This document shows positions 21,101-27,100 of a stretch of DNA of 64,000 nt, piece by piece. How positions within the stretch are numbered: position 1 is the stretch's first letter; every line of letters starts with the position of its first letter. Position numbers: made by a program. This DNA comes from an uncultured Verrucomicrobiae bacterium (GTDB lineage Bacteria; Verrucomicrobiota; Verrucomicrobiia; Chthoniobacterales; UBA10450). Location of the stretch: NCBI GenBank assembly GCA_963815455.1, contig CAWFGO010000001.1, forward strand, positions 384,001-448,000, given 5' to 3'.

Positions 21101-24100
21101 AACCTGAAACGGTCCGCCGGCCGCCAGCGCGTTTCCCGTTATTCCCTTAATCGAGCTGACTGGAATCGAATACGCGCGCTCGCGAAACACCTGCTTAATC
21201 GTGTCTACTTCTACGGCATCCAGCACGGGGTGACCCGGTCCGTAGGCCGAGATGTAATCAACGTCTTCGATGGTTCGATGAGAATTTGCCAATGCCTGCT
21301 TCATTGATTGTTCCAAGCCCGAAGCCGGTCGGCTAGGATCGACATCGCGTTGCTTGCCGTAACCACCGATTTCCGCGTAAATGCGGACGCCGCGCGCTCG
21401 GGCGCGTTCCAGATTCTCAATCACAAAAATTCCCGCGCCTTCCGAGATGACGCCGGAATCCCGGTCCAAATCGAAAGGCCTGTTCGCCTTTTCCGGTTCG
21501 CCATTCCGGCGCGAGCTCAGCCCGCTGCTGGTGAAAGAAGCCATCGAGAGCGGCGTAATCGGAGCATCCGTGCCGCCGGCGATCGCGACCTCAACCCGGC
21601 CCTGGCGGATCATCTCTGCTGCGTCAGCGACCGCATCCAGGCCTGAGGGACATGCCGAGGAGATCGTCGCCGCATGCGCGCAAGCCCCGAGCCGGTCGGC
21701 TATTACGTTTGCAGCTCCCTGGGGCAGAGACGCGGAGCAAGTGGTTGCCGGCGCACGATCCGGTCCGTGTTCGCTTACGATGTGAAGAGCGCGCTCCAGT
21801 ACATCCATCGAATTCATGCTCACCCCGACAATCACCGGCGTCGGACTCGGCAACTCAAGATTCTCGATATCCAGCGCCGCATCGTCGAGCGCCAGCATCG
21901 TCGCCGCAAATGCCAGCTGCGTATGCCTTGCCATTCGCTTCGGCTTCAGCTCAGGAGCAATGTAATCCAGCGGGTCGAAATTTTTCACTTCGCCAGCGAT
22001 CCGGCTCTTGAAATCGGTCGCGTCGAACAAGGTGATCGGGCCGATGCCGCTGCGGCCGGCGAGAATCGATTCCCAAAATGCCTCAATCCCAATCCCGTTC
22101 GGGGCCACGATTCCCATACCGGTAATGACGGCTCGATTGCGCGTACTCATGATGTCGATCCAAAAAAGACGCGCGAAAGACCAGATGCCAAATCAGCTTT
22201 CAGAAGAGATTCTAAGAAACGAGTCTCCTTGCCAAATGGCTTCGAGTCACCGCGCATTCTAGACGCTACATTAAATCCAGTCATTATACGTTTCGTCCTA
22301 TTTCAAGCCTGTTTTATCCAACCAAATCTGCCACTTATTCACAAATCGCAGCTTGCGCGCCAATCAAAACCAATTCAGCTTCCCGCCGCATAGATTATGG
22401 CTCCTGAGGCTTTTGTCACCTACCTCCTTCCGCGGCACGCTGTTAGCTTCTACCCCCGCTGCTACCCTCATGTCCGCTCCGCCTGAACCACCCGAAATCC
22501 TTGTTATCGACGACGAAGTCGGTCCGCGCGAAAGCCTGCGGATGCTGCTGAAGCCGGACTACCAGGTTCGCACCGCCGATTGCGTCGAAACAGGCCTTAA
22601 ACTTCTGAAGGAAAAGAACCCGGATACGATTGTCATGGACATCCGAATGCCCGGTATGAGCGGTATCGATGGACTGCGCAAAATCCGCGAGATCGATCCC
22701 CATCTTTCTGTGATCATGCTCACCGGTTTCGGCGCCCTCGAGACGGCCCGGGAAGCGCTTCGGTTGGGCGCTAACGATTACATCAGCAAACCCTTCGATG
22801 CAGGCGAAATGCGCGACGTCATCGATCGCAATGTCGAGCGCACTCGGGTCCACCGCACCGCCGAACACACCGCCGGCGAAATCCAGGAACTCAATAACCG
22901 CCTTCTCAAGGAGCTGGCCCAAAAGGAGCGCCTTGCCTCTCTCGGTCAGGCTTCGGCGGAATTCGTCCACGATCTGGGCAATCCGCTGACCATTGTTTGG
23001 GGCTACGTGCAGCTCTTGGCCAAGAAGCTCGAAAAAACTGACAACGGTGGCGCCGCCGAGAACACCGATTCGATTCGGGAGCTAAACATTATCGAAGAGA
23101 ACGTGCGCCTTTGCCGGGAGCTGCTCACCATGTGGCAAAGCTACGGCAGCGTTGAAGCCTCCCCGCGCAAGCCAATCTCCGTCTCCGAAATTGTCGGCGA
23201 CGTTCTCAAAGGGCTCACCCCGGTCGCAGCCCAAAGCGGCATCGATCTAAAATCCGATGTCTGTACCGATCCCTGCACGCTGCACGGCGACACGGTTCAA
23301 ATCAAGCGAGCGATCCAAAACGTCATCATCAACGCGCTCCAGGCATCCGCCGAGGAAAAAGGACCGGTTTCGGTCACTTGTGTGCGGAAAGATTTCTACG
23401 TCGATATCGTCATTGAAGATACCGGCGCCGGAATAGACCCGGTCCAAATGAACAAGATTTTCGACCCGTATTTTACGACGAAACAGGGCAAGAGCGGAAC
23501 CGGTCTGGGGCTTTATATCACAAAGAAGGTCGTCGAGGACCATAATGGCTCCATCAAGGTGGACAGCACATCCGCGGCGGGAACCGTTTTCACAATTCGC
23601 CTTCCGCTGCTGAACGTTTAGTTGCAGCGGCAGTCTCCCACCGTCGCACTTTTGGGAGCAAGGGCTCACCCCTAGCAGTCAGGATCGCGGTTTCACTTGT
23701 CAGTCCTCGTGCGTTTGGTTTCCCTGAACGGGTGCAACCCACTTATCAGGTCGCTCCAATCTTTCTGATCCGCCTGCCCGGGTTGTCCTTCGACGCAATC
23801 GAGCAGCTGGCCACGCCTGAAACCATCAAAGCTGCCCGTGCGCTTGCTGTGCACAATGAGCGAGACGCGGACTCCATGGCGCGCCTTCTCGAAACCCTTG
23901 AGAAAGAACTTGGCCCGGCACGGACGGCCCTTTGGCAATCGAGCCGAACTGTGTTGGCGCCCTACCTCATTTTCGCGGTCGGCGGTGTTCGCCAGCTGCT
24001 CTCCCACCTTCTCGACGACCAAGCCGATTACAGCCGGCTGACGCGCCGTAACTCCCGGGCCGGAGATCGGGAACGGCATCTCCTTCTTTATCTTCAGAGA

Positions 24101-27100
24101 ATCGCAGCCAAGAACGACACGTTTAGCGAATTTGGACCAACCGGTTGGGGCAAGATCGATTCGTTTAATGCGTCGCCTGCGGCGATGAACGCGATCAAGA
24201 TCGACATCCGGCCCGGGATCGCGAGGCGCAAAGCATTCTTGGAACGCTGGACCGCCCATTCCGTAGCTGCGGCGATGAATGCCGACCCGGCGGTGCGATC
24301 GGAAAGCTCTCCCCGGCTTCATCCGGGCGTCCGAATCGAAGGCGATCAACTTCTCTTTGCCGATACTGGCGAAACAATAAAGCTCGACGCCAGGACGAGC
24401 GAAATTCTTGCCCGATGCAACGGATCGACTCCAGCCCATGCAATTGGCGTCGATCTGAATGTGCTCGACGACTTGGACAAACGAAAAATGATTCTTTGGG
24501 AAGTCGAGGTCCCGGCTCTCGATCCACATCCTTTCGACACGCTCGTCGCCGATGTCCAAAATTGGCGGGAAAGCCCGGTGCGAGAAAAGTGGCTCGGGCA
24601 ACTTCAACCAATTGCCGCGTTGCCAGAAAGTATTATCCGGGCAAGCGGGCCGGCTGCCCGCTTGGAAATCATGAATGAATCGGCGCAACGCTTGCAGGGC
24701 ATTGGCGTTGCGCACACGACATCGTCCAACCGGTATCTGTATTCGGCGAAAAATCCGATTGGCGAAGAATGTTTCCGCGAATGCGGTTTCTCTGTTAGTC
24801 AGGACTTGATCGACGAAGTTGCGGTAGAGGCCGCTCCCTGGATCGATTTTTGGCGCGATTCCTACGCCTTCATTGCCGGTCGCGTCGCTGCCGATCTGCG
24901 CCGCGTTTTGGAAAAAAATCGAAGCACTGCCATGCCGCTGCCCGCCTTTCTGAAATTATGCGAAGCAGCAAAACGTCCCCTCACCGGTCCGGGCCTGATT
25001 GCTCCCGCCGCGATCGCGTTCCAGGAAATCAAAACCGCCTTTCGCCAACGAATGCGCCCTCAGGCCGATGCCGCCGAGTACACGCTTACACCAGCCGATT
25101 GCCACATTGTGCGCGATAATTTTGAATACGAAAAATTCGATGAATACACTTATCCGTCGGCCGATTTGCAACTCGCCGCAAAATCAACGGAAGCGGTAAG
25201 CCGCGGCGAATATCAATGGGTTCTGGCCGAGCTGCATCCTCCCGTTGCTCTCCTGCAACATTGCATGTACTGGGCTTGCCCCGATAAACCCGCTCTTACT
25301 CGCGCCCTCCTCCGCACAACCTGCCACCGGCCAAATTTTTATTTTGGATTTTTCGCCACCGATTTTACTGCCCACACAGCAATCCGTTTTTTCGACGCAG
25401 TTCCAGGGGTCACAAACTTTGTCGCGCCTCAACGGGGGAATCCGGCGTGGAAAACTGTTTCGCCCTCGCAAGCGGAAGTTTATGTCGATGCACCTAGTGG
25501 CGACGTTTGTCTGCGGAAAATCGGAGCCGGTGAATATCTCGGTTCGTTCTCCCGCAACTGGATTATCTCGCTCGGTTTTCATCCGTTCCAATTCGGGATG
25601 TCGCCGCATACGCCGCGGTTGCGCTGTGGGAACGTAATCGTGCAACGCCGGACGTGGACCGTGACTCTGGATGAACTCGGCGCCGGCAATTTCAAGGGCA
25701 TTTCGCGCGACCTGGTTCTCGCGATTGAGCGCCTACGCGCCCAGCGCGATTTGCCACGTTACATTTACATTCGCCCGACCGAGCAGGCACTTCGCCGCAG
25801 CGGCGCGGAAGGCCGCGACAAGGACACCAAACCGGTGTTTGTCGATCTTGAGAGCTACCTATTCCTGGAAATTTTCCAACGCTGGCTGACCAAATCCAGC
25901 GAGATCGAAGTCACCGAAATGTTGCCCGATCCGGATCATTTGTTGTGGAAGGAACCGGATGGAAGACGCACCTTCGAGCTGCGAACACTCATCGTCCCGC
26001 GCTCATGAAAATAATCGCCATCACTGACTCCGGGGAGCACACGCGCCCTCGCGTGTCCTTTTTGGCGCCCCCGCCAAAAAGATTTGTGCACGTGATCACG
26101 GAAAAAGTTCGCGCTGGCGAGAGCGCCATCGCCGGCACTCGAGGGCGCGTGCTCTCCCCGAAATGAAGATCATCGCCATCGCAAATCAAAAAGGCGGCGT
26201 CGGCAAAACGACCACGGCCGTCAATCTCGGGTGCGCCCTGGCCGAGCTGGGCCAGCGCATTCTGCTGGTCGATCTCGATCCGCAGGCGAACGCCACCAGC
26301 TCGTTTGGCTTGCAGGGATTGGACGGGACGAGCCTTTACGAACCGCTTCTTGGCGAGGCATCCATCATCGACAAAATTGTGCCGACGCGATGTGAACGCT
26401 TGTTCATCGTGCCGGCCGATCTCGATCTTGCCGGCGCCGAAATCGAGATCGCGCGCATGGAAAATCATCTCACCCGCCTGGCCGAAACGCTGAGGCCGCT
26501 GCGCGCCGACGATACCTTCGATTTCGTTCTGCTCGATTGCCCGCCGTCGTTAGGCATCTTAATGACCAACGCCCTCGCCGCCGCCGACGAACTTCTCACG
26601 CCGATTCAATGCGAGTATTTCGCGCTCGAAGGACTTGTCAAAATCGTCCGCGTAGTCGAGCAGATCCGCGACTCCGGCGCGAACGATCGGATCGAAATCG
26701 GCGGCATTGTCATGACCATGTTCGACAGCCGCACCAATCTGAGCGCACAGGTCGTCGCCGAAGTGCGACAGCATTTCGGTCCGCGTGTTTATGCAACCGT
26801 AATTCCACGCACCGTTCGCCTGAGTGAAGCGCCCAGCTTCGGTCAATCCGTTCTCGAATATGCCCCAGTGGAACCGGCGCCGCCGCCTATCGCGCCCTGG
26901 CCAAAGAGTTCCTAAAACGACACGCCACTTCTGTGTAGCGGCGGTCTCCGACCGTCGCATTATTTGCCGAGAAAATTCCACCGACAGTCGGAGGCCGCTA
27001 CAGTAACATGCTGATTTTGTGGTCGAGCCTAGGACTTTGGCGAAGCTTCGGGAGCAGCAGCCGGTGAAGCCTCAGCTTTTTCTTTCTTCGTTTTCTTCGC

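Follow-up and report, generated by a model that had tools for sequence, protein, structure and literature searches.

The window analysed here, a stretch of 64,000 nucleotides from an uncultured member of the family UBA10450 (which we take to be the family of Ca. Udaeobacter), carries a gene for a PEARL-type ligase, a small LanB of 758 aa (23732..26008, + strand, GTG start). Comparison across the family shows, at the level of sequence, that the protein has a conserved PEARL ATP site, that the promoters of the locus are conserved and that the gene comes and goes with four others as one signalling cassette. The survey's finding, based on 1.5 kb of flank, had described a unit coupled to parA and missed this cassette. 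PEARL appears to be kept or lost with the lipid-type sensing cassette rather than with parA, and a link between enzyme and cassette is quite likely.

The sole Pfam match of the ORF is Lant_dehydr_N (E 4.5e-17) and its sole PDB sequence match is 6ec7 (TbtB, E 1.2e-5); NCBIfam gave no match for it or for seven distant relatives, and atlas searches returned known families only. An AlphaFold2 model (pLDDT 93.7) matched MibB, TbtB, NisB, MadB and GodF with TM 0.59-0.65. Since no PEARL structure was present among these fold matches, TbtB is merely the nearest solved relative. Key residues were mapped by motif and spacing to PMC11962472 and to Fig. S12 of PMC11212132, rather than by aligning the BhaB and TglB sequences themselves. 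Among 73 family proteins, conservation extends over the ATP site (D478 73/73, E500 72/73, E749 72/73, R751 73/73; D558, E575, E813 and R815 in BhaB), the adenine site (R639 72/73, Y679 at least 95%; R715 and F755 in BhaB, PMC11962472) and the residues for the tRNA 3' end (R14 71/73, Y or F120 73/73, R123 72/73, K127 72/73; R34, Y205, R208 and the following Lys in BhaB). Taken together, the ATP- and tRNA-site residues are kept in 64-73 of the 73 family proteins and are invariant or nearly so over 60 homologues, and the C-terminal E-L-R follows the PEARL pattern and not that of LanB/TbtB in the same figure of PMC11212132. An elimination domain is absent in 35/35 family proteins and was not seen around the gene; the genome-wide search with PF14028 was blank in 5/5 genomes, as were its controls. 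An RRE-like region (about residues 190-256) is kept in 59 of the 73 proteins and cleanly deleted in 14, the short RRE-less versions measuring 659-688 aa; the deletion counts for the explanation favoured below, though weakly, since BhaB and TglB can do without their RRE too (PMC11962472). The LanB-like fold, the missing elimination domain and the conserved PEARL-specific ATP-site motif (D478, E500, E749-x-R751) identify a real gene whose product is, by sequence criteria, a PEARL-type ligase. The survey had assigned this type from Lant_dehydr_N without an elimination domain, and the ATP-site motif, now checked, is present. Enzymes of this kind, known from natural-product pathways, add amino acids taken from tRNA independently of the ribosome. 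The predicted activity is ATP- and aminoacyl-tRNA-dependent amide formation on a carboxylate.

The cassette is laid out as KAS*-HK1-HK2 on the minus strand and RR-HK-PEARL on the plus strand. KAS* (20906..22150) is a FabF-like ketosynthase whose FGFGG motif is changed; its catalytic Cys is kept and both catalytic His are replaced, by Tyr and Asn, as seen in the top motif counts of 75 family rows and pairwise against 4ls5; judged from these residues, it lacks the Cys-His-His triad of FabF ketosynthases. It occurs in 80/100 family genomes and in 0/6 of the genus g10. HK1 (18400..20909), found in 79/79 loci, is a membrane sensor kinase with a weak HisKA_7TM match and GAF, PAS, HisKA and HATPase domains, ending in ...EVAAA; its start overlaps the KAS* stop, its stop overlaps the HK2 start, and here it contains two one-base shifts, near 19210 and 18650. 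HK2 (16385..18403), present in 74/74 loci with flank, is a soluble sensor kinase with a receiver-like N-terminus and GAF, PAS, HisKA and HATPase domains, which were taken from an intact orthologue, the gene being split by a one-base shift in this assembly. RR-HK (22470..23621) combines a receiver domain and a histidine kinase by domain search, and no orthologue at E<=1e-40 was detected in 5/5 g10 genomes. The left border is formed by a gene that is presumably fbaA (class II aldolase, from sequence resemblance; 15325..16293, - strand). A candidate NtrC-type sigma54 activator lies at a distance (C1:836331-837698 in G000); found in 83/100 family genomes and 0/6 g10 genomes, it has the same presence/absence profile as the cassette.

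A promoter CGGCACG-n4-TAGCT (22432..22449, + strand), which we take to be of sigma54 type from its consensus, lies 20 nt before the RR-HK start and was recovered in 71/75 distinct spacers (shuffled mean 0.65) and also by a PWM scan. About 100 bp before it stands a conserved site, TTATTCACAA-nTTnnnn-CTTG (22333..22358, + strand), with TTWTNCACA in 63/75 and ACAAV-N6-STTG in 56/75 distinct spacers (shuffled mean about 1); except for the C7 copy, it occurs nowhere else in the genome. It is a probable activator site and can also be read as a DnaA box. When the pair of family motifs was searched for a wider regulon, only the PEARL locus and its C7 copy were found in the genome, and a looser sigma54 scan gave about 50 candidates. 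A sigma70-like promoter, ATGACT-17-TAGAAT (22256..22284, - strand), faces KAS*-HK1-HK2, its halves recurring in 45/75 and 49/75 distinct spacers, respectively (shuffled means 0.8 and 6.8). In sequence terms, the conserved -24/-12 motif and upstream site and the co-occurring candidate activator would fit a putative sigma54-dependent operon. A further promoter-like element, TTGTCA (23697..23731, + strand), with the PEARL start codon 33-35 nt later, occurs in 56/76 distinct stretches upstream of PEARL (shuffled mean 1.8) and was not seen before parA in five g10 loci. It could possibly give rise to a leaderless PEARL-parA transcript. Having such an element of its own, PEARL may be transcribed apart from the sigma54 promoter, which counts against the explanation that we favour below.

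PEARL is present in 88/100 other family genomes and, at a completeness of at least 90%, in 61/67, the six misses all belonging to g10; G093 and G098 give fragmentary matches only. It was found in 0/242 non-family genomes of the class and, by profile search, in 0/178 of the order. The restriction to the family within the order was thus confirmed, and vertical, family-wide inheritance is supported; the gene, described earlier as core, is better called near-core, being dispensable in at least one genus (g10) and in G018. The nearest relatives outside the family are in Myxococcota, in single or multiple copies among TauD, HD, methyltransferase, AMP-binding and GH3 genes. In the six g10 genomes and in G018, parA is kept and PEARL, KAS*, HK1, HK2 and RR-HK are all missing; in G018, fbaA directly adjoins parA on one contig. 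Eleven of the 12 PEARL-negative family genomes also lack KAS*, and nine lack PEARL, KAS* and the activator. The tree places g10 among PEARL-positive lineages, and a single clade of g10 and G018 is not rejected (p-AU 0.447); the co-loss therefore amounts to one well-supported event (g10) and a possibly separate one (G018). Adjoining genes can be deleted together without working together, which speaks against the co-loss argument.

The parA/Soj gene (26163..26938, + strand) is an orphan. Its called ORF stops at 26915, as one base is shifted in a run of C near 26862-26866, close to the 3' end, and the conserved end lies in another frame. The start had been reported as frameshifted; instead, the first six codons occur twice, on either side of a palindromic repeat of 158 bp with 46-nt arms (start copy plus repeat 26005..26162, + strand; 53-aa ORF). 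The repeat is dispersed in the genome in 12 BLAST pieces, and the duplicated arrangement is seen in 7/81 junctions. The order kinase-PEARL-parA was borne out, with the receiver-kinase upstream in 93/94 and parA downstream in 93/93 loci with enough flank, some genomes being counted twice. The gap between PEARL and parA is at most 20 nt in 59/81 distinct junctions, and repeats are inserted in about a quarter. As the survey stated, no Soj-type gene is present other than parA and its C7 copy, and parB, a single gene, lies elsewhere (C2:537.9 kb); the locus is not a parABS partition locus with parA beside parB near the origin. The link between PEARL and parA is adjacency and translational coupling, not dependence. 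The proposed functional coupling and housekeeping role are not supported, since parA outlives PEARL in 6/6 g10 genomes and in G018 at 82-85% identity, the ParA C-terminus, on which a PEARL would act, lacks conservation (the 88 loci show 77 different ends), and parA lies apart from parB with changing neighbours in 5/5 other families. PEARL may still modify a protein, but a small-molecule substrate is at least as likely. An origin of replication at the locus was rejected: there is one DnaA-type box only, and 500-1000 kb of C1 separate the locus from dnaA (C1:914.7 kb) and the GC-skew minimum (C1:1412 kb).

In 21 wide loci of 20 kb each, neither a conserved small ORF nor a tailoring gene was found within about 8-9 kb of PEARL, and only the kinases, KAS* and parA are constant. 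The locus lacks a scaffold peptide, tailoring enzymes and a releasing protease and is not a pearlin RiPP cluster, so that the earlier statements that no precursor or tailoring genes lie beside PEARL, and that this is not a natural-product cluster, hold over this wider range. A GNAT gene and a UDG-family gene downstream vary between loci and are still present in PEARL-free g10 loci; a small downstream gene (about 100 aa), which looks secreted, also persists in g10.

Outside the family, the cassette was recovered in 23 Verrucomicrobiota loci (HK1 23, HK2 22, RR-HK 22, FadL 20, sigma54 activator 17, one a remnant), after 20/25 matches had been taken in and G150 (L085) left out because its FabF histidines are kept. 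The strict sigma54 pattern occurs in only 5/23 of these spacers, and the PF04738 search was blank in 5/5 of these genomes, as were its controls. Directly after RR-HK stand an FAD oxidase (11), a SAM methyltransferase (5), a radical SAM enzyme (1) or a convergent phospholipid methyltransferase (3); further downstream are PlsY and a FeeM-aminotransferase in four loci, all of one genus, and OlsB- and OlsA-like genes in a single locus. Enzymes at this position act on lipids or small molecules, and for this reason we favour a lipid-type carboxylate as substrate.

As the best explanation, we propose that a myxobacterial-type PEARL was captured once by the ancestor of UBA10450 and has since provided the enzymatic output of a sensing cassette under sigma54 control. 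The Cys-only KAS* would bind or accept an acyl chain and signal to the coupled membrane kinase HK1; the kinases would activate the NtrC-type activator, opening the sigma54 promoter. PEARL would then phosphorylate a carboxylate with ATP and amidate it with aminoacyl-tRNA, the most likely carboxylate being a fatty acid or an N-acyl amino acid that would yield an acyl-amino-acid lipid or signal; parA would be co-transcribed, not a target. By analogy with the non-family loci, this product, and a lipid-type substrate overall, is a tentative assignment, somewhat short of even chances. The papers 10.64898/2026.05.21.726688 and PMC11212132 describe PEARLs able to act on small molecules and on non-ribosomal substrates, respectively. 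Against the lipid reading, no fatty-acid-using PEARL was met among those characterised in the literature found, all of which activate an alpha-amino-acid carboxylate. The family has also lost the cassette FadL (any FadL in 20/100 genomes) and the activator clade proper to the cassette; the circuit has thus been rewired, and a shared position may not mean a shared function. Further points against are that the FeeM loci come from one genus, that the OlsB locus is single and that only 5/23 non-family spacers show the strict sigma54 pattern. In favour of the lipid reading, FeeM was not found in 4/4 family genomes and OlsB-type genes were found in only 4/100, leaving no usual acyl-amino-acid synthase at hand.

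PEARL could instead be a regulatory protein modifier that extends a signalling protein, with HK1 as the best candidate, by one C-terminal residue; this residue would mask or complete a ClpXP-type degron in a feedback loop on the cassette. We consider this rather unlikely, and equally so the fuller version in which an ssrA-like degron of its own sensor kinase would be switched on or off with a tRNA-borne amino acid, so that PEARL would do at the C-terminus, without a template, what the N-degron aminoacyl transferases do at the N-terminus. Of 62 distinct HK1 tails in the family, 58 end in AA, and each of the four Ala codons is in use at the second-last position; AA ends occur in 5/22 PEARL-free cassettes and in 44/2287 proteins of this genome, whose tmRNA tag ends in LALAA. 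The tails of HK2, RR-HK, KAS* and ParA are not conserved in this way, and a folded protein with a short hydrophobic tag at its C-terminus can serve as a PEARL substrate (PMC11962472). However, family members are kin, and the overlap of the HK1 stop with the HK2 start in 52/62 loci, together with E-V codons that resemble a ribosome-binding site, explains part of the tail. Moreover, an AA degron needs no PEARL and is present in PEARL-free cassettes, and the free tail has only about 10 residues versus the 12-14 needed by BhaB. A complex prediction of PEARL with the HK1 catalytic domain, its tail, ATP and Mg (score 0.00, controls not folded) counts neither for nor against this. ParA, RR-HK, HK2, KAS* and the activator were rejected as substrates, their tails being unconserved or not substrate-like.

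Of similarly low probability is a conventional pearlin enzyme that works with a scaffold peptide and tailoring enzymes encoded at other loci and, controlled by the cassette, produces a cofactor or metabolite common to the family. The 5-10 kDa scaffold peptides of most characterised PEARLs (PMC11212132), the tailoring genes around the myxococcal relatives and the RRE retained in most family proteins favour it. The empty 20-kb loci and a gap of median about 100 bp between RR-HK and PEARL do not, nor does the absence of the promoter pair beyond the C7 copy; 76 acidic small ORFs of 1322 in this genome held no evident scaffold candidate by eye in a weak screen, and nothing evident was seen at three myxobacterial loci. 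That PEARL is a passenger which landed in the operon, with a function unrelated to cassette or parA, is far less probable: it has its own promoter-like element, and relatives on an Anaeromyxobacter-like contig form a tandem pair without evident partners, but no PEARL locus with sufficient flank lacked the cassette, and the two are lost together. A partnership with ParA in chromosome segregation or cell-cycle housekeeping, as held by the survey, must be judged just as improbable. The constant, often coupled parA, its status as sole Soj-type gene besides the C7 copy and the DnaA-box reading are outweighed by parA persisting without PEARL, its variable C-terminus, the repeats between the genes and the distance from dnaA and the skew minimum. 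Least credible is that PEARL supplies the glutamylation part of a split, TbtB-like LanB dehydratase. TbtB is the best PDB sequence match and a top fold match, and TbtB, NisB and MibB share the fold (TM 0.60-0.65) and tRNA-site residues; yet these lack the ATP-site Arg and need an elimination domain, whereas the family protein has the PEARL-only Arg and acidic residues, which TbtB is without, and no such partner was found in the five genomes searched, where the controls were blank too.

Compared with the pearlin enzymes TglB, BhaB and AmmB, the family protein shares the glutamylation-domain fold without elimination domain and the N-terminal Arg, Y-x-x-R, K-N-D-T helix, S-x-D, E-L-H and C-terminal E-[IL]-R (PMC11962472; Fig. 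S12 of PMC11212132). Unlike them, it has no scaffold peptide, tailoring enzyme or protease nearby, and it is single-copy, vertically inherited across the family, partly RRE-deleted (14/73) and placed inside a two-component cassette. SnaE (NRPS-associated) and SinB1/SinB2 (sinefungin) likewise dispense with a ribosomal scaffold, their substrate being a short non-ribosomal peptide or a small molecule, but they sit in biosynthetic clusters that make the substrate, whereas the family PEARL adjoins kinases and a degenerate ketosynthase. The PEARLs in the literature found all serve natural-product clusters, from which a family-wide signalling-cassette PEARL departs; its inheritance in this family of streamlined, abundant soil Verrucomicrobia suggests that aminoacyl-tRNA chemistry has a regulatory or membrane role here. 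FeeM, ExoAT and OlsB, GNAT-fold enzymes with signalling or lipid roles that use acyl-ACP and a free amino acid, resemble it in the proposed product class, and FeeM- or OlsB-like genes share the cassette operon in other Verrucomicrobiota; PEARL would differ in using ATP, a free carboxylate and aminoacyl-tRNA. Either leading outcome would be new if true: acyl-amino-acid lipids or signals made in a tRNA-dependent way, or proteins tagged at their C-terminus. The natural deletions (g10, G018), the short RRE-less versions and the tolerance of PEARLs for E. coli tRNA make both directly testable, and the short versions may serve as conjugation tools.

We found no prior report of this family PEARL within a signalling cassette, nor a description of the phylum-wide cassette (His-less ketosynthase, three kinases, FadL, sigma54 activator and variable tailoring enzyme), in the literature; the analysis exposes what is apparently an undescribed ketosynthase-kinase sensing system. 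It resembles AtoS/AtoC, NtrB/NtrC and PrsK/PrsR in its GAF/PAS kinases, its candidate NtrC-type activator and an upstream site that precedes a putative -24/-12 promoter by about 100 bp; what sets it apart is the number of kinases (three), the coupling to a His-less ketosynthase and, in loci outside the family, the FadL porin. The best NCBIfam matches are AtoS and AtoC, below cut-off, and a true PrsR orthologue is a separate gene (L232) that scores over the cut-off.

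The 758-aa enzyme encoded at 23732-26008 on the forward strand is, as judged from its motifs, a PEARL (a LanB-like aminoacyl-tRNA-dependent ligase) and not a split LanB. Lant_dehydr_N was its sole Pfam match and TbtB its sole PDB sequence match, while its structure model (pLDDT 93.7) matched the folds of MibB, TbtB, NisB, MadB and GodF with TM values of 0.59-0.65. PEARLs use R34, Y205 and R208 for tRNA and D558, E575, E813, R815, R715 and F755 for ATP, as listed in PMC11962472. When residues were mapped to these characterised PEARLs by motif and spacing, the enzyme of the family, UBA10450 according to the survey, was found to have R14, Y120-x-x-R123, K127, D478, E500, R639, Y679 and E749-L-R751; R639 and Y679 are 40 residues apart, as are R715 and F755, and this stretch aligns with the corresponding part of TbtB. 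The key residues were conserved in 64-73 of 73 family proteins and, Y679 excepted, were invariant or nearly so across 60 homologues. It is scarcely credible that the protein is the glutamylation half of a split LanB, since the closing E-[IL]-R, present in five PEARLs and SnaE but absent from LanBs and TbtB in Fig. S12 of PMC11212132, occurs here as E-L-R, and an elimination domain was found in 0/35 family proteins. In a search of five genomes this domain was detected in none, the controls of the same search being blank too. The PEARL-type assignment made in the survey's finding was thus upheld by the ATP and tRNA motifs, the closing E-L-R and the lack of an elimination domain.

The restriction of PEARL to the family within its order, also claimed there, was confirmed: the gene was present in 88/100 other family genomes versus 0/178 non-family genomes of the order (profile search), and in 0/242 non-family genomes of the class. 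These tallies take in the unpublished genomes G002, G007 and G014, and the conclusions never depend on those three alone. Among named records bearing PEARL, 77/80 loci were Chthoniobacterales or Verrucomicrobiae and the remaining 3 Myxococcota or Deltaproteobacteria. Because the family PEARLs form a single clade (support 100) among relatives at 36-47% identity, several of them from Myxococcota, their phylogeny fits a single putative capture followed by vertical descent. One genome, G004 (L054, L055), has two divergent PEARL copies and two copies of the ketosynthase gene described below. The RRE-like region was missing by deletion in 14/73 family proteins, such RRE-less PEARLs being as short as 659 aa (L058, L060-L062, L128, L137, L142, L154, L160, L164, L168, L169, L172, L173). 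In Myxococcota, relatives of PEARL occur as single or up to three copies amid tailoring genes, or as a bare tandem pair. Three Myxococcota and Anaeromyxobacter-like loci (L170, L171, L275) carry two or three tandem PEARLs of the same subfamily with no evident scaffold peptide, and L171 additionally encodes a GH3 ligase, a MATE exporter and a member of the aldolase family.

With the flank widened from 1.5 kb to 8-9 kb, a constant unit was observed in which genes for a soluble sensor kinase (HK2), a membrane sensor kinase (HK1) and a FabF-like ketosynthase (KAS*) diverge from those for a receiver-kinase hybrid (RR-HK), PEARL and ParA/Soj. Counted over loci with sufficient flank, so that some genomes enter twice, RR-HK was found in 93/94, parA in 93/93, KAS* in 83/84, HK1 in 79/79 and HK2 in 74/74. 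No small ORF or tailoring gene was conserved around PEARL within this flank, so the survey's statement that precursor and tailoring genes are lacking beside it holds over the greater distance. The KAS* stop codon overlaps the HK1 start. FabF enzymes catalyse decarboxylative condensation; KAS* retains the active Cys, but Tyr and Asn replace both His, and therefore it should, by prediction, be incapable of this reaction. In the spacer a sigma70-like promoter faces KAS*, and a sigma54-type promoter facing RR-HK was found in 71/75 distinct spacers, and in 63/75 a conserved site lies some 100 bp before it, both counts far above shuffles; no other such pair was found in the genome besides the copy on contig C7. 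PEARL has a TTGTCA element of its own (56/76). Five other sigma54-like promoters of the source genome share the cassette's AGCTT-type -12 end (C1:846031, 944475, 1422223, 1427161; C3:583944); two of them precede genes named PilT-like by resemblance, and all are possible members of the cassette's regulon.

The survey had coupled PEARL to parA. As an operon feature this coupling is real, but comparison of the genomes indicates that it is not what retains PEARL. One genus, nested inside PEARL-positive lineages in a ParA tree with five outgroups, lacks PEARL and KAS* in 6/6 genomes (91-96% complete) and RR-HK in 5/5 tested, but retains parA at 82-85% identity, flanked by unchanged outer neighbours. 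Moreover, the ParA C-terminus is variable, parA lies away from parB in other families examined, and the PEARL-parA locus is not an origin of replication. The variable C-terminus and the persistence of parA in this genus also make it highly improbable that PEARL acts on ParA. In G018, possibly a second loss, lpxD-fbaA adjoins parA directly on one contig. KAS* was missing in 11/12 PEARL-negative family genomes, several of them incomplete. A candidate NtrC-type activator encoded elsewhere (C1:836331-837698 in the source genome; 77-96% identity in the family) was found in 83/100 family genomes and 0/6 of that genus, and PEARL, KAS* and activator were all missing in 9 genomes. We consider it highly improbable that PEARL is a passenger. 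The activator gene (also L229-L231) sits behind an amidohydrolase; rpoN and the genes of two small secreted proteins are frequently close by.

Outside the family, KAS* orthologues were detected in 3/242 genomes of the class, one true FabF being set aside, and in 25/398 of the phylum sample. Over 23 such loci (L092-L094, L203-L222) the recurring order was activator-HK2-HK1-KAS* divergent from FadL-RR-HK-enzyme, with FadL in 20/23 and the activator in 17/23. The gene immediately after RR-HK encoded an FAD oxidase in 11, a SAM methyltransferase in 5 and a radical SAM enzyme in 1, and a convergent phospholipid methyltransferase directly followed it in 3/23. Further on, 4 loci, all from a single genus, encode PlsY and a FeeM-aminotransferase fusion, and one locus has genes resembling OlsB and OlsA. 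PEARL, found in 0/23 of these loci, occupies this variable slot in the family, which has lost both the FadL and the activator clade that belong to the cassette, and in which FeeM or OlsB was rare or not found. No published description of this cassette type was found, and it merits its own study as a candidate quorum system or one for lipid-type sensing.

Catalytic motifs, inheritance unit and promoter motifs were established by comparison; the remaining steps are inferred. KAS* and HK1 would sense acyl groups, a phosphorelay would pass the signal to the NtrC-type activator, and this would induce RR-HK-PEARL-parA; PEARL would then activate a carboxylate with ATP and amidate it using aminoacyl-tRNA. 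Since PEARLs can take small molecules (10.64898/2026.05.21.726688) and the other occupants of the slot are lipid or small-molecule enzymes, we tentatively propose by analogy an acyl-type small molecule as substrate. A signalling role of N-acyl amino acids in a planctomycete has been discussed (PMC7293339). A protein C-terminus is a rather unlikely substrate, suggested by the HK1 tail, which ends in AA, resembling the tmRNA tag, in 58/62 family tails with synonymous variation, compared with 5/22 outside the family and 44/2287 in the genome; however, gene overlap accounts for part of this conservation. A distant scaffold peptide seems similarly doubtful.

PEARL is real, and a new form of a known enzyme kind, found in an unexpected regulatory setting. 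No verrucomicrobial PEARL or cassette description was found in a full-text literature search whose scope left out most subscription papers and genome-mining supplements; 'lanti' never occurs in the main text of the Ca. Udaeobacter genome paper (PMC7343977), and the available text of a sigma54 survey (PMC12316311) does not mention the cassette.

One-base shifts in HK1, HK2, lpxD (14186-15200) and the parA 3' end are most likely assembly errors; the split of lpxD and of a small secreted protein gene (27029-27510) is in line with errors of long-read assembly. The parA start, thought to be frameshifted, proved intact; ahead of it lie a second copy of the start and a palindromic repeat (26005-26162), an arrangement seen at 7/81 junctions. 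Such repeats, inserted together with a duplication of the first six to nine codons, occur in several lineages (L043, L048, L049, L130, L131, L136), and the junction also takes other repeat types. The 32-kb contig C7 (L091) of the source genome holds a second, heavily frameshifted copy of the lpxD-to-parA block, with ParA 94% identical, and is probably either a duplicate of poor quality or derived from a related population. Beyond tRNA-Ala(CGC) (27976-28051) the genes have no homologues in the relatives' loci, which suggests an island inserted at this tRNA.
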